In this document: one piece after another, positions 991 to 64,000 of the stretch
How the letters are laid out: the number at the start of each line of letters is the position of its first letter
Numbering within the stretch: position 1 is the first letter of the stretch
Assembly (NCBI GenBank): GCA_030704615.1
Contig: CM060731.1
Span: 6,262,001-6,326,000 of the forward strand
Source of the DNA: Takakia lepidozioides
Taxonomy: Eukaryota > Plantae > Bryophyta
Length of the DNA: 64,000 bases
Direction of reading: 5' to 3'
Notes under the pieces: model-generated
What the model was told of the DNA's origin: nothing
The model's input: the letters and a program-made list of their open reading frames with translations, nothing else
The model's database searches: none
Made by a program: the position numbers and the translations under genes

Positions 991-1446
991 AAGTGAGATT
1001 CGGAACGTGGCAGACCGTGCCTCCTTCATCCTACATTTACGGGTCCACGTCGGCACACGCGGCAGATGGTGCCTTCTCTTCATCCAACATTTCCGTGCCT
1101 GCGTCGGCACGTTTTAGCTAGTTGTCAGGATGTGGATGTTTTCCGTCGATGAAAACCAGAGAATGGACGACTGTTACAAGGCGCTGGTTTTTTGCATCCC
1201 GATGTGCATCCATGTGGGGCCATGGATGGATGGATGGCATGCATGGAGGGGGGAGGGGGCAAGCTGGGAGGAGAGAGAAGGCTGCTGCGAAGGGATTCAG
1301 CGAGAGTGCTGTGCTGATTCTTCGATCGAGGAGGTGGTGGTGCAGGAAGCTTTGGAGATTGGGAGTTTGTTTGTGGGATCCGGGTGTGGCCGTGCGTGCC
1401 TCTTGCGCATTCTGGCCGAGGGCTTTGGCAAGGGTGGCAGTGCAAG

Positions 1447-4400
1447 ATGAGTGTGGTAGGGCTGGATGTGGGAAATGAAAACTGTATCGTGGGGGTGGCA
1501 AGGCAGCGGGGCATTGATGTGGTGCTGAATGATGAGTCGAAGCGGGAGACCCCCGCCATGGTTTCGTTTGGTGACAAGCAGCGGTTTATTGGTATCGCTG
1601 CAGCCGCATCAATCACCATGAACCCTACGAATACAATTTTCCAGATGAAACGTCTGATTGGGAGAAAATTCAACGATCCCGAGGTGCAGAGAGATCTGAG
1701 GCTATTCCCATTTTCTGTTTCGGAGGGACCGGATGGTGGCGTGCTGATAAATGTGCAGTATCTTGGTGAAACGCGAAGTTTCACGCCCACTCAAATCCTG
1801 GGGATGATTCTGTCAAACTTGAAGACTATTGCAGAAAAGAATTTGGGAACCTCTGTTGTAGATTGTGTCATTGGAATACCTGTCTATTTCACCGAGCTCC
1901 AGCGCCGTGCATATCTAGATGCGGCTCAGGTTGCTGGCCTTCGGCCACTGCGCCTCATGCACGAGACTACAGCTACTGCTCTCGCGTACGGAATATACAA
2001 GACAGATTTGTCTGATGCTGAGCCAATTAACGTTGCCTTCATTGATGTCGGGCATGCATCCATGCAAGTGTGTGTCGCTGCCTTCAAGAAAGGTCAGCTC
2101 AAGATTTTAGCTCACGCCTTTGAGCGTAATCTTGGTGGACGGGATTTCGACGAAGTTTTGTTCAATTACTTCGCGGAGAAGTTTAAGGAGGAATACAAGA
2201 TTGATGTTACAGCGAACGCTCGCGCAAGTCAAAGGCTTCGGGCAGCTTGTGAGAAGCTGAAGAAAGTACTAAGTGCTAACGCGGAGGCCCCACTTAACAT
2301 TGAGTGTTTGATGGATGAGAAAGATGTCAAGGGGTTCATTAAGAGGGAGGAGTTTGAGCGGCTATCTGCACCTATATTGGAGCGAGTAAAGGGACCTTGT
2401 GAGAAGGTGCTAGCGGAGTCCAGTCTGAGTATAGACAAGATTAGTTCGGTGGAGGTGGTTGGATCTGGCTCTCGCATACCTTCAATTCTTAAAATTCTTT
2501 CCTCAGTTTTTGGAAAGGAGCCAGGCCGTACTCTCAACGCCAGCGAATGCATTGCCCGGGGATGCGCCCTTCAGTGCGCCATGCTGAGTCCAACATTTAG
2601 AGTCAGGGACTTTGAGGTACTTGTCGTATTTATTTCTCTGTCTCTGTTGTGTGCGACACTGAGAGCAGTCTGTGAAATGTGTTGTGTAGCACACAGATAC
2701 TTGTTTTATGCTTGCATATCAATTTATATACTTTGACGATGGCTTCAAACCTTTGTGAATGTCAGGTGCAAGACTCTTTCCCTTATCCGATTGCCCTATC
2801 ATGGAAGGGATCCGCTCCAGAGTCTGAAGGTGGGGAGGAAACCTCTTCAAACAGTATTGTGTTCCCTAAGGGAAATCCTATCCCAAGCACCAAGATGTTA
2901 ACTTTCTACAGATCAGGGACTTTTACTATTGACGTTTTATATGCAGACACAACTGAATTGCCCCCTGGCACTTCCCCAAAAATCAGCACATTTACTGTAC
3001 GTATTTATTCGTCGAGATCTTTGCTTTCAGTTTGTGATTCTGATTGAGGGCATTGCAACACTTTCCCGATGTAAGGTAGAATTGCAGCTCGCATACACTC
3101 AGCATTTATTGTTCTGTTCTTGGTTTGGTTAAATTTTTCTTTGCAATGTGTCACCACTTCCATCTGCAGTTGATGAAATGGCCAGCCATTATGTGCTCCT
3201 TCAGTCCAATTAGAGGAGGTCATTTTCTTCTTGCGGCAGGGCCTTGAGTTTTCAAGTAAATTGGTTTTTTTTCAAAACCTAGTTTTAGAGGTAATGACCA
3301 TGTTCTTTCCAGTGTGGAGTGAATTGCAGTGTTATCTCGAGATGAAGTTGTGCTGTTTTCCTGATGAGGTATCTACTTGCCTGGATTCTTTCCCAGATTG
3401 GCCCCTTCAGCCCTTCCAAAGGAGAGAAGGCAAAGATCAAAGTGAAGATTCGGCTCAATCTGCATGGAATTGTCTCGGTGGAGTCTGCCACTGTAAGTAG
3501 GGGTGTTGCATTTCATCTCAAACTTTTAAAACATGTATTCTGGGATGTGAAAGCCTAATCTTCTGTGAGGAGTACCACTGATAGTTGTCATCCTACTTGC
3601 AGATGATTGAGGAGGAGGAAGTGGAAGTGCCTGTCACAAAGTCAAACTCCCAAGATGCCAAGGACGTTTCTGCAATGGAGACTGAAAAGGATGTTGGTGC
3701 AGGCGGGGAAAATTCCTCAGAGGGTAAAGATGCTAAGATGGAAGAGGCGGATGCCACTCAGCCTGGGGCTAGCAGTGGTACTGACAATGGTGTACCCTCA
3801 GCTGATGAGAAGACAGCCAAGATGGACACAGAACCCCCTAAGGTAGTTCACTAACCAAAAGCCTTTGTCAGCTTGTATCCTGTGCTGCTCACTGGACCTG
3901 TAGGAGGAGTGTATCCTTGTGTGCTGAACAGTTCATCGCCGGGTTTTACTCCTCAGCCCTTTGCAAGGGCAACATTTTGTTCTGTTACAATTTCCATAAA
4001 CTTTTTAGTGTTCTAGGTACCATCTGCTGCTTTTTTTAGTTGCATATCTAGTGCAGCTAGACTTGACCCAAATTGCCTGTTGTATTTCCTGCTGTTGGCT
4101 CAAATGAGCATGTTTGAAGGTGAGTGTTGGCAATAGATAGTGCAGGCTATTCTGCGATTCTGTTAATTGTCAGACTCTTGTGCAGTTTGTAATTATAGCT
4201 TGTTGCATGTGTCCTGTGAATATGATGACTAGACAGTAGGTGACCACGGGGAAGGTAGAGTTGCCATGTTATCTTTTGTAGGAATGCTGCTGACTAATGG
4301 TTCACGGGATGCATTATTTGCACCTTGGAAGTGACTGAGATAAAGATGGTTAGATGTCCATGCTTATGTTCTTTGCCACATATTGGATGGCAGGTGGAAG

Positions 4401-6506
4401 TGTTGAAAAGGAAAAAGACAAAGAGGACAGACATTCCAGTCGCCGAAATAGTGGTTGGAGGATTGCCACAACCAGAGTTGCAGAAGGCTGTGGAGAAGGA
4501 GTATGAGATGGCACTCCAAGATCGGGTTATGGAAGAGACCAAGGAAAAGAAAAATGCCGTGGAAGCTTATGTATATGATATGCGGAACAAGGTATCCTCA
4601 TTGCATTTGTGTCAGAAGTCACAGACGGTGGTAGGGTCTTGGTTTAGATGGATATGGAAGGTACTTTCTGTGTTGATTGCTTGAGGAATCAAAGTAGGTT
4701 GCAGTCAGAATGTTTCTTACTCTTTGCTGTGGTGTTTGTGTCCGACTAGTTCTTTTGAATCTTCCACCTACGCTGAACCTTTGGGGCTTAGTCTGTCCTC
4801 TGAAATGGCACTACATTCATTCCTGCTAATTATAGTGGAAGTGGTGTACTTAAAATAAAAGTATTTCTCTTTCGTGCAAATGTACAACTGTCTCGATGAT
4901 TTTTGACACTTCCTGAATGTATGTTGTGTTCTTCAATCAGCTGTATGAAAGACTGCAAGAGTATGTCACCGATCATGAACGGGAAGCATTGTCTGCAAAG
5001 CTTCAAGAAACGGAGGACTGGTTGTATGAGGATGGGGAGGATGAGATCAAAAGTGTTTATGTCGCCAAGCTGGTAGAACTCAAGAAGGTAATTGAGTAAC
5101 CTCTTAGGTTTCATCAGTGGGACAGTGTTTTTCTTTTCTAGAATGTTAGCTGCTGTCATGTCCTTGATCTGCTGGGCATGTCATGCACATGGTCTTTGAT
5201 TATACAAGGCCTTATTGCTTATGAGGTGCAAACACCAATGATGATAGTCTGTTGGCATCTGCAGCTTGGTAACCCAATAGAAGAGAGGCAAAAGGAAGAG
5301 GAGGCTCGGGTTCCTGCAATTTCAGAACTCAATTATTGCATCAACAGTTTCCGTGAAGCTGCCCAATCCAAGGAGGTCAAGTATGACCATATTGATGGTG
5401 CTGACAAAGAGAAGGTCGTTCTTCTACTTGCTCTCTCTAGGTCATTCTAAAAGAGTCAATTTTTGCCTATGAGGATTTCGTCCTGTAGTCACTATCAAAT
5501 CTGAAGACGCTTTGCTTTCGGCCTGAAAAGTGTTGCATACACCAACTATGTGATTTATTGGTCCCTTCAGGTAGTAAATGAGTGCAACAAGGCGGAAGAC
5601 TGGTTAAGAGACAAGAAGCAACAGCAGGATGCGCTTCCTAAATCAGCAAACCCAGTGCTTCTCTCAGCTGAAGTAAAGAAGAAGACAGAGTTTCTTGACA
5701 GGTACATATCACCAGTGTCTCACAACGCCCACTTTAGTTTACAAGTTTCACACTATCTAATAAAAAAAGACGTTTACAACAATTCATGACCATCATGTGT
5801 GAATCCCAGTACTGTTGTCTGCAACTTAGTGATGTCATTCCTTCTTGACATCATTGCCAGAGGCTTGTTTATCAAAATCTTTTTTGGTCCTCGACACTCT
5901 ATGTGACTGTTAGTTGGAACCTTGTGAAGACTAATTGGATTTTGCAGAAGATATTGATGTTGGAGATGCAGTGATAGTGACATTCGAAGGACAAGATCTG
6001 TTTGTAGGTTTCCCGCTACACTTGTTTTAGGAACAAGTAATGTATTGCTGTTCCTAGTAAGAAGATAGATTGGCTTCATCTATTTCTTCTTGAATTAAGG
6101 ACTTCTCGTGGCTTCAATGCTGATGTAAGTAATTCAGCGGACTGAAAAGAAAGAGCAACTTCCCTCCCATGGGGCTGGTCTTAGCTGTGTTATACACTTG
6201 TCCTCAACTCTTACACCTGGGAGTGAATGTATTCATTTCCATATGCGAATGCTCATGCAGCAAGCCGATGTGGGTGGATGATGATGGCTGAACAGATTTT
6301 GCAAACCAATCATGACGAAGTCAAGGCCACCCCCACCAAAGCCAGCCTCGACCACAGAAAACAAGGCTGCAGAAAACAAGGCCACTGAGCCCAAGGACTC
6401 GGCAAATGGACACACTGCAGCTAGTGGAGAAATACCTGTCGACGAACCCATGGATACTGACACCAAGTCATCTGCACCTGATTCTGACAACATGCAGACA
6501 GAGTAG
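1447..6506 (+). CDS. Cytosolic HSP110/SSE-type heat shock protein 70 (HSP70-14/15-like), 9 coding exons
   Basis: N-terminus MSVVGLDVGNENCIVGVARQRGIDVVLNDESKRETP and later KKNAVEAYVYDMRNK and EDWLYEDGEDE. GT-AG exons 1447-2616, 2766-2996, 3397-3492, 3603-3842, 4394-4591, 4941-5087, 5265-5414, 5571-5701 and 6296-6506 join in frame. Confidence 0.95.
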
Positions 6507-7699
6507 ATGGACTGGAGGGAGCCTGACGGCATCCTTGTCTATGCTCATGACTAGGCATCTGCCTTCCCTCCTTTCCGGGCACGCTTCATCATTAAGACTT
6601 GCATCTTTTCGACATTCTTCCTGGTGTTTCACTGGGCCTTTTGGGATGGCTGTCATACAAGGCAGTGGGTGATGTGATCATGTAAGTTAGGCCAAGTAGA
6701 TACAGTGAGGGATGTGCTACAGGTACAGAAATGATAGTTAGTGGAATGAACGTTTGATAACAGTGAGGAGGGAGCTCTGGAGGGACGCAGCCACATATTT
6801 GGCTCTCATCAGTAATCTGTGCATGTGGTGATGATTTGAACGACCACAGTAAAGCAACAAAAGTGACGATCTTTTTTTGGGTATCTACTGTGCAGGATTC
6901 CGGTATTGGGAATGTATGTGGCACTACTAGCTCACACCTTTGCTGCTTTACTTTCCAATTCTATGTCACGGCCTTTGCTGTAGAATGGTCTTCCAAATGT
7001 TAGACCTGGTAATTGTCTTCTTGAGACTGACATTGATGCCAAGTTGTCAGTGTTTGCCATTCAGAGAAGTCAAGAATTCATCACCGAAAATCTGAAAAGT
7101 GGAGTTGAGGAGGTCCCATGATGCCATTACCGATTCCATTACCATAGAAGCCAGAAGTGGGGTTATTTAGGTCCTAGTTTGATGATGCCACTCCTGATTG
7201 ACTTGTAAATAATGTAGTTGATTGTAATTGCAGTGGCCCTCACTGCTAGTGAGGTCACCTATCATGGTCATGATGTAGGCTCTTTCAGTTGGCTCTTAGC
7301 AAATACATAATTTCCGTGAGAAGAAGAAACAGGCAAGGCCCAAACACCCAACAGTTGGGCCGCGCGCTCTAAGTGCTGAACGACCAATGATTTATAGAGC
7401 ACAACAGAGTTCATTGCGGTTCTTTGCGGTTTCTTTTTAAGGCAATATCCCTGAGAGCAAGTAACTGCTCACAAATTTGGGTCTTACAAGAAAAGAGAGA
7501 AGGAAATAACCATAAGGCTTGAGGGATACTCGCCTAAAATTCAAACCCGTATGTCAATACAATGAGGCAAGAAGGTTCGAACCCAGAATCACCCCGAAGC
7601 ACATTAATCACTACAATGACGCGAGATTTTTGTGCCACGGAGTGAGTCAGGGTTCGAACATTACCCTATATTGCTACAATGAGGCTAGAAGGTTTGAAC

Positions 7700-8446: not shown

Positions 8447-9455
8447 GTTTGAACCCAGAGTCACAAAGAGAGAGATGAGAGTGAATAAGTGAGAGAAGAT
8501 GGAGTAGGTGAAGAGTGAAGAGTAGTTGGAGATAGAATCGCAGAGGGATGTGCAGACAGTAGTATGAAGAAAATCTTCGAGGAAGCAAGCAGCCTGAGAG
8601 TCTGCTAACAAATTGCGATGCACACACTTACATATCTGATGCTGGTATTAACAGCATGCTACCCATGCGATTGCTTCAACGACTTTTACAGATGTCAAAA
8701 ATGGTTGGCTCTGTCTTCACCGAAGAAGTTGGAATTCTTGGTCAGTCAAGTGTGGGGATGCAACTAATTAAATGTAAGTCAAGTATGATCTTACGTGCTT
8801 ACCATTGATATTAATTCGTGAGAAGCATTCTTCTTCCTGTGACAATTCCAATACATAACAGTGCCAAATGGAGAGCTGTAAACCTTGGTTAGAGCAAACC
8901 CTTAGTCACCAGCAGGAAACCTTGGATGGAGCGAGTACAAGTGTGCATGCGACTTCTGCAGACTACTGAAGGGCAACTAGTTTTTCTGCTTGCACTTATT
9001 TTCGGTATCTCACATTCACTGAGCAGAACAAGAACTGGCAAAGATAGATTCAGTTTTCCATTTGATTGATCATCTGAAACTTGGAGTCTCCACGGGAAAA
9101 ACATCCTTGGGGATCAAATTTTGAGGGAAATGATATCTGGAATTGACCTTGACATTAAAGAATTGACCGTATACTTGAAAACAAGCTTCATGATTTGCGC
9201 TCATATCAAGTACATATAAATTGTTTAGTTGGCACTGGTCAACGTTTGATGGAACGTGCCCATTTCTCGCACTTCCTGGATGCACTAAACTGGTCATCTG
9301 ATGCAGATATGTGACTTCAGGATTGCCTTCTAGAGAGAACTTTTGAAGCTAGAAAGGGTAAGTCTTTTGCAGTTCCGCTCATATGCAGGGAGAAATATCT
9401 GGCTGAATCCTGTTTCCGTTGTCGGATTTTCTGGCACGAAGGTCTACAGTGGAGC

Positions 9456-12400
9456 ATGGAGCAGAGCTGGCATGAGGTTTTTAAAGATCCTTCACAATGT
9501 TGGGACAACCACAATCTTAAGGTGTGGCTTTCTTAATGTGAAGAAGTCTGTCTGTTCTGAGAATGTGGCTCTTCCTGTCAGTATCACGATTTGGCATTTT
9601 TCCTGGTGTTTACTAGGTACTTGGGAGGGTCAGCTTGGTCTTAGGAGGCCGTGCTTAAATCTATGGCTGCTCAGCTGCACCGTGGTGGTTCTCACAGACC
9701 AATCCAAGATTACCTGACTACAAACACAAGCAGCGCGCACAAGAGGCCCTTTTGTGATGATGGTCGGTTGAATATTCCGTGGGTGAAAGAAAAGCTAGCT
9801 GCTTTCATGACACAAGGTCAAGGACAATGTGGTGAGGGCACCTTCTTCGACACATTTCAGCCTGTTTTGCCCTTATCAGTGTCATCCCTAATTTTTCATT
9901 TTGAATTCTGCAAGTTAGCTGGTTGGGTGCATCTATGGCAGTTTGGATTGATTTTGACTGTTACTTCCAATGTGGCAACAGGAAAGTATCCAAAAACAGA
10001 TAACAGAGAGAAGCCTTGGAGTGAACATTCTTCAGACCCCAGTCAATGGTGGGCCAATCAAGGCAAAAAGGTGAATTCCTGTTAGATTACAGAGAGAAGC
10101 AGACAACAAGATGCAATGCAAAGCTTTGTTGGAGATTGTCATCCTCTCACTCCCCAGCACATTCTAAAGTCTTGGGAGCATTCAGCATAGGAACTAGGGT
10201 GTGTGATAAGTAGGGTTAGGGTGTTTGCTAGAACAAATCTAGGCTGTCATTGTCAGCTACTAGCACCAAGGCGAGGATCTATACATGATTTGTGCAGAGT
10301 GAGGATAGCTGAAGGGGCAGGGATAGAGTGTGGGTCCAGATTCATCCAAGAGGCCCAGATTTCAAGCACAAAATTACCTATGATTCCCTGTGGATCGATA
10401 GCTACAAAAAACCTGCATGGGTAGATGGTCAACTGGAAGCAGCAGCAGCAGTGGCACAGTTGATAAAATCAGGCACCTCAACCATGACCACAGCTTCCGA
10501 AGGAGGACCAAGAGAGGTAGTCCACAACGCCTCTTCTGGCACTTCTGGGCATGTGAGGATGCTATGTGAGGGAGGGCGACTGGAAGAGGCTCTACAAACT
10601 TTAAACCAAGGAGCCATTTCAGCAGATTCAGATACTTACGTTTGTCTCTTGCATAAGTGCATCAAGATGAAAGGCCTGGAAGCTGGAAAGCAGGTGCACG
10701 CTCACATTATCCAAAGTGGATTCAAGCCAAACGTTTTTCTACACAATACCCTTCTCAACATGTATGTTAAGTGCGGGAGCATCATGGATGCTTACCAGGT
10801 TTTCAACAGAATGCCTCAACGATGTTTGATCACGTGGAATATAATCATGGCAGGATTTACCAAGCATGGGTATGGCAGGAACACTTTGGAGACATATGAG
10901 CAAATGATGACAGAAGGGGTGAAGCCCAACCACACCACGTTTGTTTGCGTTTGTAATGCATGTGCAAAATTAGCAGCCCTTGACAAGGGCAAAGAGGTCC
11001 ATGGTGACATCGTCAAAGGTGAAATTGTACCAGATGTCATTCTGAACACTGCCCTGGTGGACATGTATGCCAAATGCGGGAGCATTGAAGATGCAAAGGG
11101 AGTGTTCAACAATATGGCTGAACGAAATGTGGTCTCATGGAGCGCGATGATCGCAGGATATGTGCAGCATGGGTGTGGGATGGAGGCTTTGGAGATCTAT
11201 GAGCAAATGATGCGAGAAGGGGTGAAGCCCAACCACATCACGTTTGTTTCCGTTTGCAATGCGTGTGCAAGCCTGGCAGCCCTGGAAAAGGGCAAAGAGG
11301 TCCATGGTGACATCGTCAAAGCTGGATTTGTACCAGATGTCATTCTGAACACTGCCCTGGTGGACATGTATGCCAAATGTGGGAGCATTGAAGATGCAAA
11401 GGGAGTGTTCGACAACATGGCTCAACGAAATGTGGTGTCGTGGAATGCGATGATCACAGGATATGCACAGCAGGGTCACGGGATGGAGGCTTTGGAGGCC
11501 TATGTGCAAATGATGCAGGAAGGGGTGAAGCCCAACCACATCACGTTTGTTTGCGTTTGCAATGCGTGTGCAAGCCTGGCAGCCCTGGAAAAGGGCAAAC
11601 AGGTCCATGGTGACATCGTCAAAGCTGGAATTGTACCAAATGTCTTTCTGAACACTGCCCTGGTGGACATGTATGCCAAATGTGGGAGCATTGAAGATGC
11701 GAAGGTAGTGTTCGACAATATGTCTGAACAAAATGTGGTGTCGTGGAACGCGATGATTGCAGGATATGCACAGCAGGGGCGCGGGATGGAGGCTTTGCAG
11801 ACCTATGAGCATATGATGCGGGAAGGGGTGAAGCCCAACCACATCACCTTTATATGTGTTCTCTCTGCATGCAGTCACGTTGGCCTGCTGGATGAAGGAA
11901 GACGCTACTTTGAGTCCCTGAGTCAAGATCATGGTGTCACTCCGACAGTAAAGCACTTTGTCTGCATGGTGGACCTTCTTGGACGTGCGGGCCGATTGGA
12001 TGAGGCAGAGGACCTCATTAATAAAATGCCGATCAAACCAGACGCTGTGGTGTGGAAGGCCTTGCTTGGTGCCTGCAGAATCCATGGCAACTTGGAGATG
12101 GCTGAACGTGCGGCAACATCTATTCTCAAGTGGGATGTACAGGATGCCGCGACTTATGTGTTGCTATCAAACATCTATGCTGCAGCTGGCAGGTGGGACA
12201 ATAGTGCAAAGGTGAGAAAAATGATGAAGGTCAGAGGGGTTAGAAAGGAGCCAGGTCGCTGCTGCATTGAGGTGGGCAACAGGGTGCACACCTTTGTTTC
12301 AGATGACAAAATGCATCCCAAAAGTAAGGAAATCCATGATGAGCTGAGACGATTGTCTGGGCAGATGAAGGAGGCTGGGTATGTGCCTGACACGCGCTTT

Positions 12401-12658
12401 GCAATGCATGATGTGGGGGAGGAGCAAAAGGAATTTTCCCTTTGCCACCACAGTGAGAAGCTGGCCATTGGTTTTGGGCTGATCAGCACGTCCCCTAGGA
12501 CGCCTATCCGTCTCATCAAGAATCTTCGGGTGTGTGGTGACTGCCACACCTTCACCAAGTTCATCTCAAAGATTGTTGGCCGAGCAATTGTTGTACGGGA
12601 CGCTAACCGCTTTCACCACTTTGAAGATGGGGTTTGTTCTTGTGGGGATTACTGGTGA
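9456..12658 (+). CDS. PLS-class PPR protein with E/E+/DYW deaminase domain and N-terminal OSB-like PDF motifs (organellar C-to-U editing factor)
   Basis: Main exon 10340-12658 has PLS triplets, PG box (PGRCCIEV), HSEKLA, CGDCH and terminal DYW. Upstream GT-AG exons 9456-9521, 9698-9816 (1-nt frameshift/stop at 9755) and 9982-10070 encode W..F.DPSQWW...K/NPR.PDFKHK motifs. True start uncertain; ATG 9807 gives an open spliced frame. Confidence 0.88.
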
Positions 12659-13539
12659 AACGATGTTTTTCTGGAAAAATGTGAGTGTCTTGCTTCATTC
12701 ATTGATCTGCCTAGCTACTCCGTTCCTCCACCATTTCCTGAGAATGTCGATCATGGTCTTCTGTTGAGGGCATATCCACAGGAAATGGTAGTGGGGTCTA
12801 CCCAGCATAAGTGGGAAAGTCAGCCGATAATTGCAATTGACTGGAGCAGGTGGTGACAGTAGAATGAAATCAGAGTGCTGTGCTAATTCTGGTGTGGATG
12901 GTGGAGCTTCTTCAAACCTTAAATATCAAAGGGAATATGATTCGTGATCACTAACTTGCATGAATGTTGTCAAAAGCTAGCCTTAACCAACCAAGATCTA
13001 ACCCCATCGTGGCCACTCAAAAGTTTGCTGAGTGACTGTAATTGTATTCGCGTATTGCTTGAATCATGAATTGGATGTCGCCTTTCACCCAAAATACTCT
13101 TCCATCCCTGTCTCTACATAGAACTCATAGCAGAGCTCATACAACTCGTACAACATACAACTTCAACACGCAGTACACAGAACACTTTGAGAGTACCTTG
13201 TCTGTCTCCTTGAGAGAGTTTATAGAAAGTTAGCTTGGAATGATGAGGTGTGTTGAGGTGCCTGTCCCCACCATACCTTAGCCATGGACTAAATGGGTTG
13301 TGCATTGATTCGAGGGAGAGTGCGAGCAAAGCTGAAGAGAGAGAAATGTGAGAGCGTGGAGATGATGGATAGGATCGAGGAAGTTGAGTCACGGGTGGCT
13401 GAAACCTTGCATCGGGGTCGCACTGCCAAAACATACGTTTCTGGCTCTTTCTCACTCACCGGCGGAGACGGCAGCGTCTTCCGCGTTCAGCAAAGAAGTA
13501 AGAAAGCGCACGGGAGCGTTAGACAAGGCCGAGCTGGAG

Positions 13540-13610
13540 CATGAAACAGCGCTGGCAGGAGTTCTTTAAAGATCCTTCACAATGGTGGGACAGTAGCCTT
13601 GACGAGATGA
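13540..13610 (+). pseudogene. Isolated PDF-motif exon remnant, paralogous to 9451-9521
   Basis: Translates MKQRWQEFFKDPSQWWDS; shares the nucleotide block tttaaagatccttcacaatg with 9480-9499. Confidence 0.6.
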
Positions 13611-14723
13611 GCTTTCTTCAGGTAGGATGTGAAGGAGTCTGAGAGAGTTTGACTGAATTCCGGTATCATTCTGTGGATTGGATTGAGTGAAGTCAGGATT
13701 TCGCTTTGCTCTGCAAAAACTGGTTTGACTGTCCGTATCGGAGGTTGTTCTGGAGCAGGGCATGAAACGTCTTTGCCCTCGAGGTTACAAGGCACTCGGG
13801 AGTGTGGAGACTGGCTGCTCAGCTGCTCCCCGGTCGTTTCCACAGACCACTCCAAAATCTCCAGACATAAGCTTGTTTAGCATCTGTGTAAGTTTGGAGA
13901 TGTTTGTGTGTTCCTCACAGTCCAATGCAGCCTCTCTTTCGTACGCAGTAGAAGTCTTCCGATTCGGTTGGTGGAGTTTTCCTCTTTCCAATGCTTGAAA
14001 GAGTCTCTTGAGAAGCTGTCCCACGAATATTTGTATCTTCAAATTCGCAATCGGAAACGTCAATCTAGGACGCCCCTTTCATAGCCGTAGTTACACCACC
14101 TGACTCATCGTGAACAGTCGTGTAACGATTGCCTTCGGTCTTCTTCTGCACTTGTCCATATGTAGCGCCAGATTCAGTGTGGAAGGGCTACAAGATTCGT
14201 CACTAGTGGAGTCCTCGCAGGATTCTCGCTGGTGGAGTCGCAGGATTCGCTACTGGTGGAGCAGCAAGATCCAACGCCTTGAGCGGGTCTCGTTTGCTGC
14301 CATGCTGGAAAGCACTCGGCATACTCCCTACATCGATCTTTCCGACTGTGAGTCTGAAGAAAGAACTGGCCGGTATTCTTGTCAGCTGCAGGTTAATCTT
14401 CCTTCACATTCACAGCGCACATGATACTTTGCTCACTCCCGTTAGCCTGGCGAATTCGCTAGCGTCGGGCCCCACCTCAAGGGAGCGAAGCGAAGCCTCG
14501 GACCTGGCACATGCAGCGAACGGTTCTTTGGCCCCGCTGCTTTGGTCTTTTTTGTGCTGGGGTGAAGCGAACCAAGGGCGAAGCGAATTTGTGGGGCGAC
14601 CGCCCCGCTGACACGCCCTGGCATGGCGAATTCGCCCCTCTGACAGGCGAATTCGCTCATGTGTAGGTCCTTTGTAGTCGGAAAGATTGATGTAAGAAAT
14701 ATGTCGCACACCACCACTAGTTG

Positions 14724-38408: not shown

Positions 38409-41400
38409 ATCAGGATTAGATCTTGCTTGGTCGAGCTTCTATTCTTCCCCTCCATCTCTGTACTATTCTCATTACCTTGTACTTGTAGTTGCCAAAGCCT
38501 CTCTTGGTGGAGGCCAGTCAGTCCGGGGTTGTGGGCTGGGATATTCTGTAGGATCAGCATTGCAGCTGGATTTTGGTGTGGGGGTGTTGATGTTTTGATT
38601 TCTTGTGTTTGGATCCCCCCCAACACCTGCATGCTTGACTGTGCACCATGTTGGTTTTGTGTGGGCGCTTGCTTTCATAGGGATTAGGTCGGATTTGATC
38701 ACCGGTCAATCCTAGAGTATGCTGTCGGTGGTGAGGCTGGAGTGATGACCAGCAAGACCACCAGTGTTTCTTCTATGGTGAGACTGGGTTGATGACCAGC
38801 CAACCATAGGAGTTCTTGCGGTGGATGCAGGTGCAGGTGCCCTGAGCCACTGGGATATGACCCTTAAACTGCAACAGGTGCCCACCCGTGTCACTATTAG
38901 AATTAGTACTAGAGCCTTATAGTGTCACGTGGGGGAGGTGCACATTGTGAGTGTCATCACGGAGTTACCCAAGGGTTCTGAGGGGAGTACGGCTACAGGC
39001 AGTAGCACTGAGAGTGGGTTCACCAGACAAGGTATTCGTTTCAGACCACCTCCACCTCCACCCTCAACTAGTGCAGAGTCAGACACAGACTCGGAGGCTT
39101 CATCAACAGGTGTGCAGTTTCATTCGCCATTGTTGTGGGACGACATGGAGGAGATGTATGGAGCTACCAAGGGGCCTCGTAGGTACTCTGGAGCTGTGGG
39201 CACAATCGAGTTGGATGACTTTATCCAGGAGTTTGACAGCTGGTGTGATTTGCAGCAGATGCGCAATCCACAGCTATTCATTCCATTCATTGCGTGGAAG
39301 GGACTGTTCCAGCATTTGGAAGGCCCGCCTATGGACGATTACCACGAGTTCAGGCGAGGACATGAAGCAGAGATTGAGGAGTGAAGGATGTATTGGTCAC
39401 CTGACTACGTCTCCATTACTCGAGGCACGACGCGATCAGTAGCTGCATCAGTACCAATATCTCCCACTGCCAGCACTAGTAGTGGAACAAGTAGTGCCGG
39501 TACTTCTGCAGGTGGTACCAGTTCAAAAGGTGCTACTACTCCTTCTGCCACGGCTACAACACATGTGCCTAGATTCAACCCGGTGGTGGAGTTCTTCCAG
39601 GAGTTGCGGATGAACTACTAAGGTGTACGGACAGAGAAGCTGCGAAGTTTGCAAGACTTCTAGCGCAAACCCATTGAGAGCATGCGAGAGGCGTACACTC
39701 GTATAAGGCGCTTGATAAGTGTGACCCAAGGGGTTACTGAAGCTCAGGCAATCCAGTTTTGGTATGGAATTCTGGACAAGGAGCTCAAGAGAAGGGTGCG
39801 AGATGCAACCCTGTTACAAGCAGCCCAACCCACATTAGCATATGTGTTTCTGCTGGCTGAGCGGATTGAGCTCAACATGGTGGAGGAGCGAGTTGTTACC
39901 ATTGGATTTGGCAAGGTCATGCCTGCACGGGGCACAACTGCCAGCCCACAGGCACAAGGGACTGCCCAACAGCGTGGTCAGGGGGGCAAGGTTTCCCAAC
40001 CCAAGTTCCATGGAGCTTACAGGGGACCTCAGGTGCAAAGGCCCATGGTATCTTTTGCAGGCCACCAGCAACCAGGGGTGATATGTTGGACATGTGGAGG
40101 ACCCCATGTCAAGAGAGATTGCCCAGAGAGTGGCAAAAGGCCGGCACAAGCACAGCCTGCACAGTTGCAGTGTGGGCATTGTGGCAAGTATGGGCATGGA
40201 GATGCCCAGTGTTATGACTTGCATCCTGAGTTGCACCCAGGCCAGTTCCAAGGGAACAATGGTGGCCGGGGGCGAGGTGGACCAGCCCAGAGAGGACGAG
40301 GTGGTTGGGCACGAGGTGCAGGCCAAGGGCAAGCTCAACATGGACAAGGACGCGGAGGTCAGGGTGTTGACCAAGGCATGGCCAACCGGCTTCAGCAGCT
40401 AGAGCAGAGGCTCGCTGCCATGGCCACAGCTCAGGCGGTACCGGCTCCCAGGCGGGATGGTCCACCTCCTGCGCCTGAGGGAGGAGATATGGGAGGCATG
40501 GTATTCATGTGCGGAGCAGCGCTACCACTAGAGTAGGTGGAGTCTGCTGCAGCCGTGACTCGAGGAGCATCACGAGTTCCTGAGCCACGAGGTGCAGAGG
40601 TGGAATTGGATCCACAGCGTGGGGAGGCAAGCCGTCAGGCGAGGCTTCCTCAGTCATTCACATTGGTGGAGACAGTGTCGACGTCATCCATGGCACCTAG
40701 TTCTTGCCCGACTGTTACCGAGGCGGAGGTTACTATGCCATTGGGGAGAGCTACACGTGCAGCACTGACACCTGCTACCAAGGCTAGTGCAGCCGGTGTG
40801 TTGTTGGGGGCAGCCACCTCTGTGTGTCAAGCCCCACTGTTCTCGGCAACCATGATTGCGACGCCGGGGGTAAGACCAGCTGTAGTGTTCAGACTAGTAG
40901 CAACACTCTGTGAGAGTGGGGAGGTCACTTCATCTTTTGCGGAGTTAGTGGAAGGTGTAGTGGCAGAGGGATCCTCGGATTTGAGGGTCAAGACTGCCAC
41001 GGCTGCGCCATGGCAAGCTGCAGCTGTCAGGTTGACGGAGCTGCCAGCTAGGCCAGCCTTTGAGCGCGCCATGGTGACACCTGGAGTTGTCTTGTTAGAC
41101 AACCAGGATGGCATTTTCACTTTGAGTGGACCGACAGGCAAGAAGTACCGGCCACTACGGGTCTTGTTGGAGTCGGGAGTTCAGCCACTGATGTTAGGCA
41201 GAGCTGCTATTGCAGGTTTGGGCCTCATGGAGGCGGATATGGAGCCTTGTCTTTTCTAGATACATACATCTCTGGGAGGATCAGAGCAGGCTCGGGGCAT
41301 GACACGGCGTGAGTTGGCTATTGGACTACAGCCGGATCATCCTGTAGATAGCTCAATGATGCGAGCCAAGGCCATTGTGACAGACGCGGTCTCTTACGAT

Positions 41401-41880
41401 GTCCTCGTTGGTGGGGCAGTGTTATATCCCATGGGCTTCACCCTGGACTTTTGGGAGGAGTCAGCATCCTACAGGCCTGGATGGCAGTCAGGGGATGGTC
41501 GTCGTGCACAGCTCCTTGTGACATTCATTGGGGGTATTGCGGCTGCCCAACGGGGCAAGACGCCAACACTAGCCGCCTTTACAGCTACAGTTAGTTGGCC
41601 TAGAGAGTTGCTGGAAGGCAATGCCCATGCAGAGGATGTGCCACCTCCAGCAGAGCAGGATGACATGCATGGTATGGCGGAGTTGCCTGCCATGGTTGCT
41701 CACACTCCATTGTGGGGTACGAGCAAGGATTTGCAGCAGGTTGCTGATCGACGGGTGCAACAAGCCTGGGTAGAGGCTTTTGTACCGTCAGGAGAGGAGG
41801 AGAGTGCAGGTATTGTACCAGGACCACCTCAGTTGTCACCATTGGATACCACACCTATTGTGTGGCAGTATCCGGATGAA

Positions 41881-42830
41881 GCCATTTGCCTTCTGGACTT
41901 GTTTGGCGGGATCAACACCGGATTGGCTGCTGTGCTACAGGCAGGTGTGCGGGTAAGGCGTTACTTGTATGTGGAGAGGGATGAGACTGCACGACGCGTC
42001 TCACTGCGCCATGTTGCTCAGTTGGTACAACAGTACCCTGCTTTGTTGCCAGTGTCTGCAGTTCGTGGATACCAACAAGCCTTGCCAGCAGACATTTCGT
42101 TGCTGGGGGCGCCGGATTTGGAGCAGGTTGGCTCCATTGATCTGGTAGTGGCAGGTTGGCCCTGCCAAGGGCATTCATCAGCTGGGCATGGCAATGGATT
42201 GCGAGACTCGAGGACGGGTCTGTTTTGGGAGATGGTGCGGATTTTGCGCCACTTGCAGCTTCATCAAGCTGTATCGCCAGCATACATCTTGGAGAATGTG
42301 CCACTGATGGACGATTCTCGGGCCAGGGTGATGGCCAGTGTGCATCAAGTCCGGTCGCGGCTTGGGTCAGCAGTGCTGCTGGATGCAGCTGCAGTGGGAT
42401 CACGGGCTCATCGTCCACGGCTATGGTGGACTAACTTGATGTCACCCGCACTGCTCAAGCGTGCATTTGATGGGGTGCAGCGGCCAACACACCTCACAGT
42501 GGACAGCATTTTGGACACAGGGAGGCAGTCTCAATGTGTGAGACACGATGACCGTTCGCCTTTGGCAGTGGTCAACAGGGTGGGTCAACCACGAGCAACA
42601 TTACCTACACTGCTCAGCTTCCCAGGATCCCATGCTTTTTGGGATGGTGGACCTGGCCTCATGTGGGATGCTCAGTTGCAGCAGTTAGTGGAGCCTAATG
42701 CTGACGAGCGAGAGCGGGCTATGGGGTTTTCCACTGGGACCACAACGGTGCCTTCTCTTTCTGAGGCATCACGTCGTCAGGTGTTGGGGCAAGCAATGGA
42801 TCTCAATTGCTTGACCTGGATTATCAGCTT
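41881..42830 (+). CDS. C5-cytosine DNA methyltransferase domain of the polyprotein
   Basis: Ordered motifs I LDLFGGI, II YVERD, III ADI, IV GWPCQGHS (Cys codon 42163), V GLRDSRTGLF, VI YILENV (ENV at 42292), VII DAAAV, VIII HRPRLWW, IX ERERAMGF, X RRQVLGQAM. No stop inside the domain. Confidence 0.92.
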
Positions 42831-45800
42831 GGCTATGGCTGAGCAATGTAGAGTGCGGAGTGCACTTCCCTTGATGGTCTCTCTGCCTACCGAGACGGTA
42901 CAGGCAGCGAGTGGGGGCGAGCCGGTGAGGACCACGGGGTGTAGACATCCATGGCTAACGTAGGAGGTGCTTGAGGTTCAGAGGAAGTTGGCAGCCAAGG
43001 CAGCTGTGATGGATGAGGTTGGGGATTCTTCTCGGGTTGATGAGGTCCTCAAGGATGAGATGATGGGGCAGGATGAGGCCTTGTCATTGACTGAGCAGGT
43101 AGGGAGTACTGCTCAAGAGGTTGCGGCATAGCAACCACGGGACGCGTCCTCTACCTCTAAGCCCATTGGACTTAAGGTTGCAGTTACGGAGGACAATTGG
43201 GAGCCTGACATTGGACCCATTGTCACCGAAGGAGAGAGACGACGTATACGGTGGTTCCTAAGGGCTTACAGGAATTGCTTTGCCTTCAGTTTGAAGGACT
43301 TAGGAGCACTGAAGGGTCAAGAGATTCGCATTGAATTGGCTACTGACACGCCAATCTTTCGGAGACCCTATAGATACAGTGACATGGAGAGGTCCTTGAT
43401 TCAGATGAGAACTCAGGACCTTTGGGAGGCTGGTTTGGTGGAGCTATCTGGGGGAGAGTATGCTTCAGCCACAGTGATGCCAGCCAAGAAGGATGTCTAT
43501 GGCAATTGGACGGAGAGACGTATGTGCGGTGATTACCGGCCTGTAAATCGTCAGACCAAGTCCGATAGGTATGCCATGCCGACACCAAAGGAGATCTTTG
43601 ATGCCATTGGGCATGCCAAGGTCTTTAGCACGTTGGATTTACGATCCAGATATCACCAGTTGCCGCTCAAGGAGGCGGATAAGCAAAAGACGGCATTCTG
43701 GGGGATCAATGAGCACGGGAAGGATTGCCTATACCAGTGGCGGTTCTTACCATTTGGGCTTAAGAACGCTCCGGCAGAATTTCAGAGAGTCATGGATAGG
43801 ATTCTAGCTGGGGTGGAGTTTGCTCGGTGCTACATAGATGACATCATCATTTTTAGTGTTATGGTGGAAGAGCATGAGAGACACCTTCAGGGGGTATTTG
43901 AGCGCTTGAGGGCGTACGGATTGAAGTTACATCCGGGAAAGTGCAAGTTTTTCCACAACCAGATTGAGTATCTGGGTCACATGATATATCCTGGAGGATT
44001 GGGGGTACAACAGACTAAGGTAGAGTCCATTGCACAGGTTCCACGCCCCACGGATGTGAGCCGAGTTCGAGCTTTCATGGGGTTAGCAAACTATTATAGA
44101 CGGTATGTTAAGGGATTTAGTGCCATTGCAAAGGCTCTAACCAAGCTGACCAAGGTGGACCAGGAGTGGCAGTGGGAAGATGAGCAAGAACAAGCTTTTC
44201 AAGAGCTCAAGGCGAGGTTGACCTCGGCGCCCATCTTGAGACGACCTATCAGGGGGCGTCATTTTCAGCTGCATACAGATTGGAGCATGCTGGGGCTTGG
44301 AGCGGTGCTCACACAGGTGGATGATGAGGGAAGAGAGTTCATAGTGGCTTATGCTAGCTGCTCGAACAACGTTGTAGAGTCTAAGTATAGCTCATATAAG
44401 GGAGAATGCTTAGCTGCAGTGTGGGCCATGGCACACTTCAGGTACTATCTATACGGCAATCTCTTTACCCTTGTCACAGATCACCAACCACTCAAGTGGT
44501 TGATGGAGTCAGACAAGCTTACGGGGAAGCTTGCACGGTGGGCACTCATCCTTCAAGAGTATGACTTTCAGGTGGTGCATTGACCGGGTTTGGTCAATCG
44601 CAATGCAGATGGGTTGAGTCGCAATCCATGCACGAGCCAGCAAGATGACACTGGAGCTCGGTGGCATGGTGAGACGGACGAGGAGATGGTGCCCGGATGG
44701 CATGCATCTGCATTTCTGTGTATCTTGGCAGCGGAAGGCCAGGTTGGACCTGCAAGAGGGATGACTGTAGATCAAGTGTCTGAGGACCCTGAGGCCAGCA
44801 ATGAGCAGGGTGGCACCAAAGATATACATGAGGATTCAGTTGTGTTGGACTACCTCCGCACTGGAGACACTGCAGCCACTGTGACTGCCAAGGAGAGGGA
44901 TCGGATCCTACAACGAGCCAAGAGGTTCAAGTGGGAGGGGACACACCTGCTCCGAGTGTGGGAGGATGGTCGAGTGAGGATTGTGCCTCACCCAACACAG
45001 CGGGCACGGTTAGTGCGGCATGCCCATGAGGAGTTGGGGCATTTTGGGGTGCGACGCACTCATAGTCTACTGCAGGGGCAGTATTGGTGGCGTGGTATGC
45101 ACACAGAGGTGCAACAATTTGTGGCTAGGTGCATGGTGTGTGACAGGGTGTGTGCTTCATTCAACGCCCCTACTCCACAATTGCACCCTCTTCCGATCAT
45201 GGGATTGGGCTACAGGTGGAGTCTTGACTTCGCAGGGCCGTTGCCACTGACCATGCACCATAACAAGTACGTGTTGGTGATGGTGGAACACTTCTCCAAG
45301 TGGATTGAATTGGTTCCATTGCCTGATAAGGCTAGTGAGGGAGCTGCGTATGCATTCTTGGATTGTGTGCTTAGCCGATTCGGTGCTCCTGCTGAGGTAC
45401 TCACGGACCAAGGGAGAGAGTTCTTGGGGGAGTTTCAGGCTTTGTGTGACAAGGCCTTGATAGACCACCGCACCACTTCTCGGGATCATCCTGAGGCCGA
45501 TGGCTTGGCAGAGAGAGTTGTTCAGACAGTAAAGAGGGGTTTGCACAAGTATGGCTTGCAGAAGGGACACCTAGGAGATTGGGACCTTCAGTTACCCTGG
45601 TTAGCCATGGGCTACAGGTTCAGCAAGCAAGCATCACTTGCCTCATTCTCGCCATACTTTCTTCTCTTTGGCCGAGAGCCGGATTTGCCTACATCCATTC
45701 GCAGAGAAGCTGCTACAGTTCTTAACCTTGACGATCCGGACGTGTGGGCACGTGCATGTGAGCAACGTGCAGAGTTATTCAAGAAAGTCATGCCCATGGC

Positions 45801-46122
45801 TTTCGAGAACCTTGCCATTGCACAACATCGTGATACGTTGAGGTATGCTACCATACGTGGTGGGGGCTATCGTCCTGGGGTTCGGAGATTCAACCCTGGT
45901 GACTATGTTTATCTGTAGCAGACTGCTCCTATGACCTTGGATGTGACTGCAGGACGTGTTATTTTGAGGGTTCGAGAGGTCTTGCCCTTAGGCGTCTTGG
46001 TCTTGGAGGGTCGGGATGGCATAACTTGGAAGGACCATGTGCGTAATTGTGCGCCATGTCACCTTCCGAATGTCGATGGCGGGATTGACCCAAACCTGGC
46101 AGTGGTATCTGCAAGTTTGAGG

Positions 46123-57861: not shown

Positions 57862-58150
57862 TCATGTGTGGATCCTCGCCTTGCTGCTAGCAGCTGACAA
57901 TGACAGCCTAGATTTGTTCTACGCACACCCCAGCCCTAGTGAATTTCTCCGAAGACTTCAATTTGTGCTGGGTCAGAGAGGATGACCGTTTCAAACAAAC
58001 CTTTGCATTGCATCCTGTTGTCTCCTTCTCTCTGTAATCTAACAGGCATTCACCTTCTTGCCTCGGTTGTCCCACCATTGACTGGTCAGCAATATGTTCC
58101 TTCCAAAGGTGGGTTGTAACCAAAAGTGTTTTCTGCTTTCCTCTTGATTC
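57862..58150 (-). pseudogene. Inverted paralogous fragment of the PDF-motif exon and following intron of the first PPR gene
   Basis: LWKEHIAD/SQWWDNRGKK|gtgaat matches 9982-10075. Intron blocks gttagattacagagagaag and tagaacaaatctaggctgtcattgtcagct match about 10081-10130 and 10229-10258. Confidence 0.8.
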
Positions 58151-60431: not shown

Positions 60432-61833
60432 CTTCCGTGGCGCTGTCCATCCCCCTCCTTACCCCTGCATGCCACTTCACATTCTCTTCTTCTGCTTCCC
60501 TGGAGGAGGACTTGCGGGCGATGCAACGATCAACTGACGGTGAAGAACTTGGCCAATAAATTTCGACCTGTGTTTGGGATGATGCGAAGCTGTCACCTCT
60601 TGCAAGATGGGGTTCGTTCGACAGTCACGTCATCCGGGGATCCGCCGTCCTTGCAAGACTGGCCCTCGGTTGAGATCTTCCGGAAGGTATGGGCTGCACT
60701 CTCTGTTACCTCCTCTGCATTCTCGCAACTGCATTGCGTCAAGATTTGTATCAGACAGTTTCGGTCGAATTGTGGGGCGGTGGAGACCATTGGAGGACGA
60801 GAAGTTTTGCGGAAAGGGGAACAAGCAAGCAGGTATAGGGAGATCTGTCAGTGGCCTCATCCTCCTTTGGTCACATTCTGCGAAGAAATTGCCAACACAG
60901 TGCAACTAGTTGGCCGTAAGAGTCGTGACACGGAGATGAAGTGCTTCAATACTCGGGAAGTTTTGGCGAGATCCAACCTGGCTGTCCCAAAGACTGATGC
61001 TGAAACACATGTTCCGAGTTGGTATGCTATTTCAATAAACCTCTCTACCAATGGTGAGTAAAGAGAATGTGCTCATAAGACGTTGTTTGCCGTAGCCATG
61101 GGAGTAAAGAGAGATGAAGTACAAGGGTTCCTGTTACACGTGGTAAAATAGAAAGCAGAGTGCAGAATAGGAAGATCAAAGTTGATTTTTGTATTGCTGA
61201 CTCGCATCTTCCCAGTTAGGGATGGTGATTCCCACATGTCGGTGTCTCACTAAAGATCACCGAGGTTGAGTCAGTCCATGCAAAGGACAGTAGCTATTGG
61301 GGATGGGTTGTCCAAATGGTGTTGTCATTGTTGATGACAATGGCGGGACAGGTTAAATGGATACATGATAAATTCCGTTCACTGTTATCTGAACTCCATT
61401 GCCACTCTTTGTTGTACAAGAAAGTGGATAAAGACCATGTTGGGATGGCAGTTGGGATACTTTGGCTGAGAGTTCAGGGCACCATGTGAAGAGTGTGGAC
61501 ATGATTATCTCTCTGGATTAGTTGTATGGCGTGTTCTGATTAGTACTCTCATCATGAGGGGAGACAGTGAGCCACCCATTGCATATTCCCTGAGAAAACA
61601 TTATATTGCAGTGCATGACACTGTTGCCAGACACGGGTCTTGGCTATTACTGCATACAAGGACTGAAATAATCGTATTGCAGCTTAAATTTGAGTTGGTA
61701 ATGTGCTGCAAGCATGTGATGTAGAAAGGTATTTGGGGTGTAGCAAGGAACTTCTCCTCATGCAGAGATCTTTCTTTGAAATATGGAGGAACTCTGAGTG
61801 TCAAGATTTGAAACTGAGGTTGGGTCATGCAGG

Positions 61834-63540
61834 ATGCCAGGGTCAAATCAGGCATGGTTGTTTACATCAGGCACCTCCACTGTGACCAATGTTTTTGAGA
61901 GAGGACGAAGAGAGGGAATCAACAAGACTGACACGTGTCGGTATCTGAGGATGATATGTAAGGAAGGACAACTGAAAGACGCACTGCACATTTTGAACTG
62001 GGAAGACATTTCAGTAGACTGCACTACTTATGTCTGTCTCTTGCAAGAGTGTATCAAATTGAAAGGCCTAGCAGAGGGAAAACAGGTGCACGCACACATC
62101 ATCCAAAGTAGGTTCAAGCCCAACATCTTGCTATTCAACACCCTTCTCAACATGTATGCAAAGTGCGGGAGCATGGTGGATGCACGACTAGCATTTGACA
62201 AAATGGCTGTACGAGATGTGTTTACATGGACTACAATGATGGCAGGATATGCAAAGCATGGATGTAGTAAGGAGGCTTTAGAGATCTTTCAGCAAATGAT
62301 ATGGGAGGGGGTGAGGCCCAACAAAGTCACATTCGTTTGCATTCTCAATGTGTGTGCCAGCCTGACAGCCCTGGAAATGGGCAAAGAGGTCCATGGTGAC
62401 ATCATCAAAGCTGGAATTGTGCCAAATATCATTCTGGAAACTGCTCTTGTAAACATGTATGCCAAATGTGGGAGCATAAGAGAAGCATGGCAAGTGTTTG
62501 ACAATATGGCTGAACGAAATGTGGTCTCATGGAGCACAATGATTGCAGGATATGCCCAGCAAGGGTGTGGTAGGGAGGCTTTTGATATGTATAAGCAAAT
62601 GATACAGGAGAGGGTGATGCCCAACAGGGTTTTGTTCACGTGTGTTCTCACTGCATGTGCCAGCCTGGCAGCGCTGGAGAAGGGGAAAGAGGTCCATGGT
62701 GACATCATTGCAGCAGGAATTGTGAAAGATATCATTCTGGAGACTGCTCTTGTTGACATGTATGCAAAATGCGGGAGCATGACAGACGCCCGTCAAGTGT
62801 TTGACAATATGGATCGACGAAGTGTGGTCTCATGGAATGCAATGATGGCAGGATATGCTCAGTTTGGGTCCAGTAGGGAGGCTTTTGAGACGTATAAGCA
62901 AATGGTACGGGAGGGGGTGATGCCCAATCAGGTATCTTTCACTTGCATTCTTAACGCTTGTGCTAGCCTCGCAGCCCTGGATAAGGGGGAAGAGGTCCAT
63001 GTGGACATCATCAAAGCTCAAATTGTACCAGATATCATTCTGTGGAATGCCCTTGTTGACATGTACGCAAAATGTGGGAGCTTGCAGAATGCTCATAAAT
63101 TGTTTAACAAAATGGCTGAACGAAATGTGGCCTCATGGAATGCCATAATTGCAGGTTATGGTCACCACGGGTGTGGTCGGGAGGCCCTTCAACGATTTGA
63201 AGAAATGCAACAGGACGGGTTCAAGCCAAATGGCATCACCTTTATATGCGTCCTCTCTGCATGTAGCCATGTGGGCTTAGTTGAGGAAGGCCGTCACTAC
63301 TTTGATTGCATGACTCAAGATTATGGGCTCGCACCTACAGCAGAGCATTTTGGCTGCATGGTGGACCTTTTTGGGCGTGCAGGGCGATTGGATGAGGCAG
63401 AGGACTTAATTCACAAAATGCCAATCGAACCAGATGGTGCGGTGTGGGGAGCTTTGCTTGGTGCCTGCAGAACTCATGGCAACATAGAGATAGCAGAACG
63501 TGTTGCAAAATTTTCTGCCCAGGACCCTGCAAGTTTGTGA
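61834..63540 (+). CDS. PLS-class PPR protein, paralog of the 10340-12658 gene, truncated in the E domain (possible pseudogene)
   Basis: PLS triplets and PDGAVWGALLGACRTHGN; the ORF stops at 63540 and a frameshifted E+/DYW relic follows to the window end. Start uncertain; upstream exons are possible. Confidence 0.82.
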   Translation: MPGSNQAWLFTSGTSTVTNVFERGRREGINKTDTCRYLRMICKEGQLKDALHILNWEDISVDCTTYVCLLQECIKLKGLAEGKQVHAHIIQSRFKPNILLFNTLLNMYAKCGSMVDARLAFDKMAVRDVFTWTTMMAGYAKHGCSKEALEIFQQMIWEGVRPNKVTFVCILNVCASLTALEMGKEVHGDIIKAGIVPNIILETALVNMYAKCGSIREAWQVFDNMAERNVVSWSTMIAGYAQQGCGREAFDMYKQMIQERVMPNRVLFTCVLTACASLAALEKGKEVHGDIIAAGIVKDIILETALVDMYAKCGSMTDARQVFDNMDRRSVVSWNAMMAGYAQFGSSREAFETYKQMVREGVMPNQVSFTCILNACASLAALDKGEEVHVDIIKAQIVPDIILWNALVDMYAKCGSLQNAHKLFNKMAERNVASWNAIIAGYGHHGCGREALQRFEEMQQDGFKPNGITFICVLSACSHVGLVEEGRHYFDCMTQDYGLAPTAEHFGCMVDLFGRAGRLDEAEDLIHKMPIEPDGAVWGALLGACRTHGNIEIAERVAKFSAQDPASL

Positions 63541-64000
63541 TGCTGTGACACCTCTATGCTGATGCTGGAAGGTAGGAGACTACGGTAAAGGTCAGAAGAA
63601 TGGAGGAGAGAAAGTATCCAGGGTGCTGCTGCATGGAGGTGGACAACCAGGGACGTACATTGATTGTAAGTGACAATTGCATCCAAAAAGTGAGGAAATG
63701 AAAGCTGAGTTGAGGAGATTGTCTGGGCAGATAAAGAAGGCCTGATATGTCCCTAACTTACATGATGCAGGAGGAGATCAAGGATTTTCTCTTTGCGACA
63801 GTGAGAAGCTGGCTTTTGGGCTCATCAGCAAACCCCTCAACAACTCTCTGCATCACCAACAGTTTTGCAGTGTGTGTGGCTCTGACACAGGACCACCAAC
63901 TCATGCTGCCACAGCCATACCTGAGTGGACAGACCGGAGATCTTTCTCCAAGAGCCACTTGAGGACAAGTGCGATGTGTTCAATTTGGTGATCATCATGT

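Follow-up and report, generated by a model that had tools for sequence, protein, structure and literature searches.

The PDF-PPR-DYW locus and its surroundings

The window, i.e. the whole stretch of 64,000 nucleotides of Takakia lepidozioides DNA that was analysed, contains a spliced Hsp70 gene, retrotransposons, an F-box gene, and two PPR genes. One of the latter carries on the forward strand, 5' of its PPR tract, two tandem units of 54 residues each that match the PDF motif of OSB proteins. Unit 1 starts at ATG 9456 with an N-half exon (9456..9521), followed by a phase-0 GT-AG intron within the unit (9522..9697) and by the C-half exon (9698..9831). A phase-1 GT-AG intron (9832..9981) separates the two units. 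Next come an exon with a linker and the N-half of unit 2 (9982..10070), a second phase-0 GT-AG intron within the unit (10071..10339), and an open exon of 772 codons (10340..12658) whose first 34 codons (10340..10441) encode the C-half of unit 2. An earlier, sequence-only reading had described two such units, both interrupted by a phase-0 intron at an identical position, with the second unit continuing in frame into a PLS-E-DYW exon. We recovered this whole arrangement; the split lies in both units five codons before the Pro of PDF or PDY.

Behind the C-half of unit 2, the long exon encodes a linker, a PLS-type PPR tract (PPR_2, E 1e-74), an E motif (12083-12271; E_motif, E 1.5e-17), an E+ motif (Eplus, E 1.9e-6), and a full-length DYW deaminase (12377-12655; DYW_deaminase, E 6e-43) with HxE(x)nCxxC and the terminal DYW. 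About 740 residues come after the PDF motifs, i.e. the motifs are N-terminal to the PPR tract. Neither the long exon nor the frames 9334-9714 and 9645-10082 gave a Pfam match to an SSB domain in a scan from 9334, and no transit peptide was found before 9456. The PPR tract is built of triplet repeats of 101 residues. Three consecutive 303-base PLS triplets (10829-11737, forward strand) are 84-91% identical as DNA, which points to a recent duplication or conversion within the tract. The E-DYW end is 61-64% identical to that of loci that we call Sphagnum-type after their resemblance to a protein attributed to Sphagnum compactum, a level consistent with a moss origin.

Two relics of PDF exons lie elsewhere in the window. 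The one at 13535..13866 (forward strand, 22.4 bits on the PDF profile) corresponds to the exons of unit 1, with the N-half, the intron end, and a broken C-half, and no PPR exon was seen behind it. The other, at 57862..58106 on the reverse strand, is a cut-off N-half exon of unit 2 with the start of its intron. The second PPR gene (61798-64000, forward strand) is of the same PLS type, has stops and frame changes in its E and DYW parts, and has no detectable PDF half upstream.

PDF motifs of the OSB type

The identification of both units as OSB-type PDF motifs is supported by a profile of 39 motifs from 25 SSB-domain proteins (28 of 32 SSB-bearing proteins entered the extraction, 4 of these 28 lying under the Pfam cut-off). 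Both units align over profile positions 1-54, unit 2 with 67.2 bits and unit 1, with an X at its break, with 49.0 bits; the maximum among 400 shuffled sequences is 9.3 bits. The C-half of unit 2 contributes 47.9 bits, a score that is partly circular because this half was the query that fetched the proteins of the profile. Unit 1 and both N-halves were absent from the query and are hence outside that circularity, and the N-halves alone score 20.0 bits in unit 1 and 13.9 bits in unit 2. The query, the 36-residue C-half of unit 2, matches 126 proteins at E <= 0.001 among 1.84 billion representatives; 32 of them have a Pfam SSB match (E <= 0.001) and three have PPR repeats. One SSB-bearing match carries the source name OSB1-like.

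Searches of Pfam, PHROGs, and PDB sequences returned no family for the motif itself, and word-index searches with the PDF C-half gave no matches. Many of the matching proteins (P0003, P0005, P0006, P0008, P0015, and others) have up to 12 PDF motifs and no Pfam domain of any kind. Phage gp49 clusters, proposed as relatives by the ESM Atlas, were set aside with scores of 0.76-0.82, below the lead level of 0.9, and a scan of viral contigs confirmed the motif in none of 55 stretches.

Splicing in the RNA of paralogues

Two sequencing runs from the same species are presumed to be RNA: their contigs match the exons of Hsp70 without differences and skip its introns. For this gene (1318-6813, forward strand), the match covers the downstream exons and the junctions of six introns. 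At 80% likeness, 1488 contigs of one run and 601 of the other align to 9200-10560, and the peaks of contig depth fall on the PDF exons. Taken together, the contig counts and the peaks imply that many paralogues have these exons. Contigs at least 99% alike to the locus number 141 of the 1488 and 53 of the 601, and each of the 16 long contigs listed differs from the locus at 18-38 letters.

Three junctions had been predicted from the letters. Equivalents of two of them are present in paralogue contigs: 9521/9698 in two contigs of one run and one of the other (from 9516 to 9696, with three letters between), and 10070/10340 in a single contig. The third, 9816/9982, has to be moved. Its donor 9817 is absent among the 15 joints listed, with 112 others existing, and the middle intron instead uses the donor 9832, with a GT..AG joint 9830->9981 seen in four paralogue contigs of each run. 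The two donors keep the same reading frame. Some paralogue contigs read through the third intron, and some joints skip an exon, which would be out of frame at this locus. The essential part of the prediction, namely that the PDF exons are joined to the PPR exon in RNA, is seen in paralogues and relatives, including the spliced copy L017 described below. Other paralogue contigs join sequence like the relic at 13535-13603, or sequence like 9505 and 9872, back to 9439-9453, which suggests that further partial PDF exons lie upstream in other family members.

A decaying copy

The locus had been read as a DYW editing factor with PDF motifs. Its architecture stands, whereas the soundness of this copy does not: there is a frameshift, two key residues are lost, and the motif scores are low. 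The one-nucleotide lesion announced for unit 1 is present. The frame changes at the T run 9750-9753, TGA TGA follows at 9755-9760, and the product of the four exons stops after 41 residues. A set of 77 other motifs has 17 columns that are conserved in 85% of them or more. Unit 1 departs from these columns five times, counting the break, and unit 2 twice, through the loss of Asp17 (kept in 77 of the 77) and Arg19 (76 of 77). The 21 Sphagnum-type motifs, at 72.5-88.7 bits, all outscore both units. In paralogue contigs, the letters found most often encode Phe at two positions (9477 and 10030), Trp at 9500 and at 9755, and Asp at 10054. Of 40 differences listed (536 more exist), 19 fall in exons, four of them silent, and the rest are intronic.

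Could the frame break be a mere assembly error? It falls in a run of four Ts, but two arguments favour real decay. First, the conserved positions just named differ in both units (five in unit 1, two in unit 2). Second, the neighbouring Hsp70 exons agree with the contigs of the presumed RNA runs at every letter. The locus is thus a decaying copy of a PDF-PPR-DYW gene. Judging from its frames, it could still yield a protein with one PDF motif in either of two ways: a skip from 9521 to 10340 gives a whole motif in a frame of 794 codons, since both cuts are in phase 0, and a restart at the in-frame ATG 9807 opens one of 810 codons. Neither form was seen in the RNA contigs, and neither has a transit peptide.

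A family of PDF-PPR genes

PDF, PPR, and DYW recur together elsewhere in intact genes. We scanned metagenomes with an alignment of C-halves and analysed the best 80 of 481 confirmed stretches. In 56 of these 80 loci, PPR repeats lie directly behind the motif, in 13 an SSB domain lies ahead of it, and 11 have neither; at 90% identity they form 33 clusters (22 PPR, six SSB, five neither). No SSB match was counted in any of the 22 PPR clusters. Fourteen of the 22 have a DYW match, and in seven the frame stays open all the way from the motif through the DYW domain. The other 15 comprise eight clusters in which DYW was not matched and seven with DYW behind a break; these are E-type or truncated, or their frame is interrupted by a mutation or an assembly error.

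The clearest intact member is L017, the spliced, eight-block copy of the gene L018. It has a single frame of 788 codons with a Ser/Arg-rich N-terminus (20 Ser, 12 Arg, and four acidic residues in the first 100), a whole PDF motif, PPR repeats, E, and DYW. Among proteins of 754-2400 residues, 11 match the three motifs of P0004, nine of which, counting the query, combine PDF and PPR. Those with names come from Adiantum capillus-veneris, A. nelumboides, Ceratopteris richardii, and Sphagnum compactum; Diphasiastrum complanatum has a protein with PDF and PLS-E. DYW is not among the domains listed for the fern and clubmoss PDF-PPR proteins. Most family members have a single PDF motif. The linker between the motif and the first PPR repeat is about 12 residues long in Sphagnum-type and clubmoss genes, and longer and variable at this locus and in fern proteins. 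Three genomic Sphagnum-type genes (L015, L016, and L037) have no intron inside the motif, possibly through intron loss or as retrocopies, and L037, whose spliced copy is L028, has a stop at the first Trp. From these data, the PDF-PPR genes appear to be a large family of predicted organellar PLS-E-DYW editing factors with an OSB-type PDF motif on their 5' exons.

Selection, origin, and predicted fold of the motif

The PDF-PPR architecture is real and under selection. For 18 genes taken together, dN/dS is 0.14 in the N-half, a region outside the scan pattern, and 0.22 in the part of the C-half behind the pattern; a value of 0.25 was obtained for the first 60 PPR codons. These values are rough because about 55% of the synonymous sites differ. 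W5 is conserved in 18 of 20 genes, and F9, P12, WWD, and R19 in all 20.

These figures bear on the idea that the exons are passengers, i.e. that a founder PPR gene took an OSB-like promoter, transit peptide, and 5' exons, and that the motif then spread without a function. The decay of both units at this locus beside an open PPR-DYW exon would fit that idea, as would the two cut-off relics and the PDF-less PPR gene within the same window, and PPR families are reported to grow by dispersed duplication (PMC13386178). Yet it is strained by the selection signal at such divergence, by the nearly invariant residues, and by the same-species paralogues, in which the commonest letters encode the canonical Trp, Phe, and Asp. 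We hold it to be very unlikely.

The intron five codons before PDF is present in 17 of the 22 PPR clusters and in four of the six SSB clusters. This phase-0 position, shared by PPR and OSB genes, indicates copied OSB exons, and we infer that the two PDF exons were copied from an OSB gene. In a tree of 55 columns, the closest neighbours of unit 2 are moss-like OSB motifs (67%; branch 92/90, without a star), and those of unit 1 are Sphagnum-type PPR motifs (57%). This hints at separate origins of the two units by a second capture, an idea that was dropped because the data do not reject a common clade (p-AU 0.40).

Modelled on its own, the motif of L017 gives a compact predicted helix-strands-helix unit (pLDDT 88.6, pTM 0.71). 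A Foldseek search with this model in the PDB and BFVD gave no match with E under 0.001, and the best structural match has Z 3.0 and an rmsd of 2.9 over 46 aligned residues. Such a lack of a clear match does not indicate a new fold.

Relation to known systems

The closest known relatives of the units are the OSB proteins (Arabidopsis OSB1-OSB4), which were reportedly described by Zaegel et al. in 2006. They share with the genes studied here a PDF motif of about 50 residues (PMC6963530, PMC4166229, PMC6451138), present in one or more tandem copies, and the phase-0 intron five codons before Pro-Asp-Phe. In OSBs, the PDF motifs come after an SSB-like OB domain, at the C-terminus, and there is no catalytic part. 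At the present locus, by contrast, they precede a PPR tract and a deaminase, and the scan detected no SSB domain. The long exon, in turn, resembles PLS-E-DYW editing factors such as moss PPR56 and PPR65 and Arabidopsis OTP86 in its PLS repeats, E, E+, and DYW domain with the HxE(x)nCxxC signature (PMC7611903) and the terminal DYW. Unlike these, the gene has an additional N-terminal PDF module on separate exons, and no transit peptide was identified in this copy. Other accessory domains have been reported on PPR editing factors, namely RRM, MORF, and RanBP2 zinc-finger domains (PMC13386178). What sets the PDF fusion apart is that it characterises an entire expanded family and not just a few genes.

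The sequence-only reading had known of no functional description of this architecture, and we too found none in the full-text literature (subscription papers aside). The terms 'pentatricopeptide' and 'PDF motif' co-occur there in one review (PMC6963530), which, in its accessible text, treats the motif only in OSBs. The main text of a kingdom-wide survey of editing-factor fusions from 2026 (PMC13386178; supplement aside) has no mention of PDF or OSB. Such surveys can miss the motif because there is no model for it in the Pfam copy that we scanned and because an intron splits it. PDF-PPR-DYW proteins are thus apparently an undescribed variant of PLS-DYW editors, represented here by a decaying copy.

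Possible roles of the PDF motif

The reading that we prefer, to which we give about even chances, is that the motif in intact members is a sequence-independent ssDNA tether keeping the editor near nascent transcripts. Intact members would be imported into the organelle, where the motif would grip single-stranded DNA without reading its sequence; this grip would hold the editor at the nucleoid, beside newly made transcripts, whose RNA the PPR tract and the DYW domain would then edit in the usual way. Three points favour such a tether. First, the PPR-borne motifs are as OSB-like as those of the OSBs, with medians of 83 and 87 bits, respectively, on the OSB profile. Second, OSB1 and OSB2 are reported to prefer ssDNA over RNA (PMC4166229), and the PDF motif of OSB1 is said to suffice for ssDNA binding (PMC6963530). 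Third, nucleoids are reported to contain transcript maturation factors (PMC3555230). The grip may be weak, since most members have one motif, whereas OSB2 binds as a tetramer according to the review cited above (PMC6963530).

We know of no report of a PDF-type motif in PPR56. This moss factor is described as editing faithfully in E. coli (PMC10482289), and a tether would therefore not be needed for editing as such. A bolder version of the proposal would see in these genes old, repeatedly refreshed PPR editors of seed-free plants that are anchored on organelle ssDNA by captured OSB exons and couple editing to transcription, with the DYW members also deaminating the displaced DNA strand and thus writing edits into the genome. 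We regard this full version as a long shot.

A rather unlikely, although serious, alternative is that the motif holds on to the single-stranded RNA on the 5' side of the PPR site, independently of its sequence, and keeps the target open in the manner of the ORRM and MORF cofactors. PPR tracts bind RNA in an orientation that places an N-terminal motif on the 5' side, and in Sphagnum-type and clubmoss genes the motif abuts the first PPR repeat, hence would lie just there. The reported fusions of PPR proteins with RRM and MORF helper domains (PMC13386178) would fit such a role. Nevertheless, the binding preference reported for whole OSB proteins is for ssDNA (PMC4166229), and at this locus and in ferns the linker to the first repeat is longer and variable.

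It is more doubtful that the motif has lost nucleic-acid binding and become a protein-docking or oligomerisation module, joining editors to each other, to OSBs, or to nucleoid proteins. Several invariant Trp and Pro residues would also suit a peptide-binding surface, OSB2 is reportedly tetrameric (PMC6963530), and E-only members would require a DYW partner in trans. However, the PPR-borne motifs retain the basic and aromatic residues of OSB motifs and score as high as these on the OSB profile.

The last alternative, that PDF-PPR-DYW proteins deaminate cytosine in organelle ssDNA, with the PPR tract as guide and the PDF motif as loader, is highly improbable: an ssDNA-binding motif and an intact deaminase do share one frame in seven clusters, and designer PPR proteins are reported to bind ssDNA (PMC9508816), but the motif is also kept on proteins that have no DYW, the DYW active site is described as gated (PMC7611903), titles and abstract openings yielded no report of DNA editing by a plant PPR-DYW protein, and DNA-directed deamination is the least supported part of the original proposal because the whole PPR track separates the motif from the active site of the deaminase. 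Between the two, we consider RNA editing with a nucleoid tether the likelier function.

If the motif does tether editors to nucleoids, organelle DNA and RNA editing would be linked within one protein in the lineages that edit the most, and co-transcriptional editing would become testable through one module of 54 residues. The same module would, moreover, offer engineered PPR editors a small and portable component, and would be grounds for checking such editors for DNA off-targets.

A retrotransposon with a methyltransferase domain

Elsewhere in the window, a Ty3/Gypsy-type element (39664-45918, forward strand) has a single reading frame with five internal stops. Between its gag-like part and the RT-RNaseH-integrase part lies a C5 cytosine methyltransferase domain (Pfam DNA_methylase, E 3e-13). 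Retrotransposons carrying a methyltransferase are known in algae.
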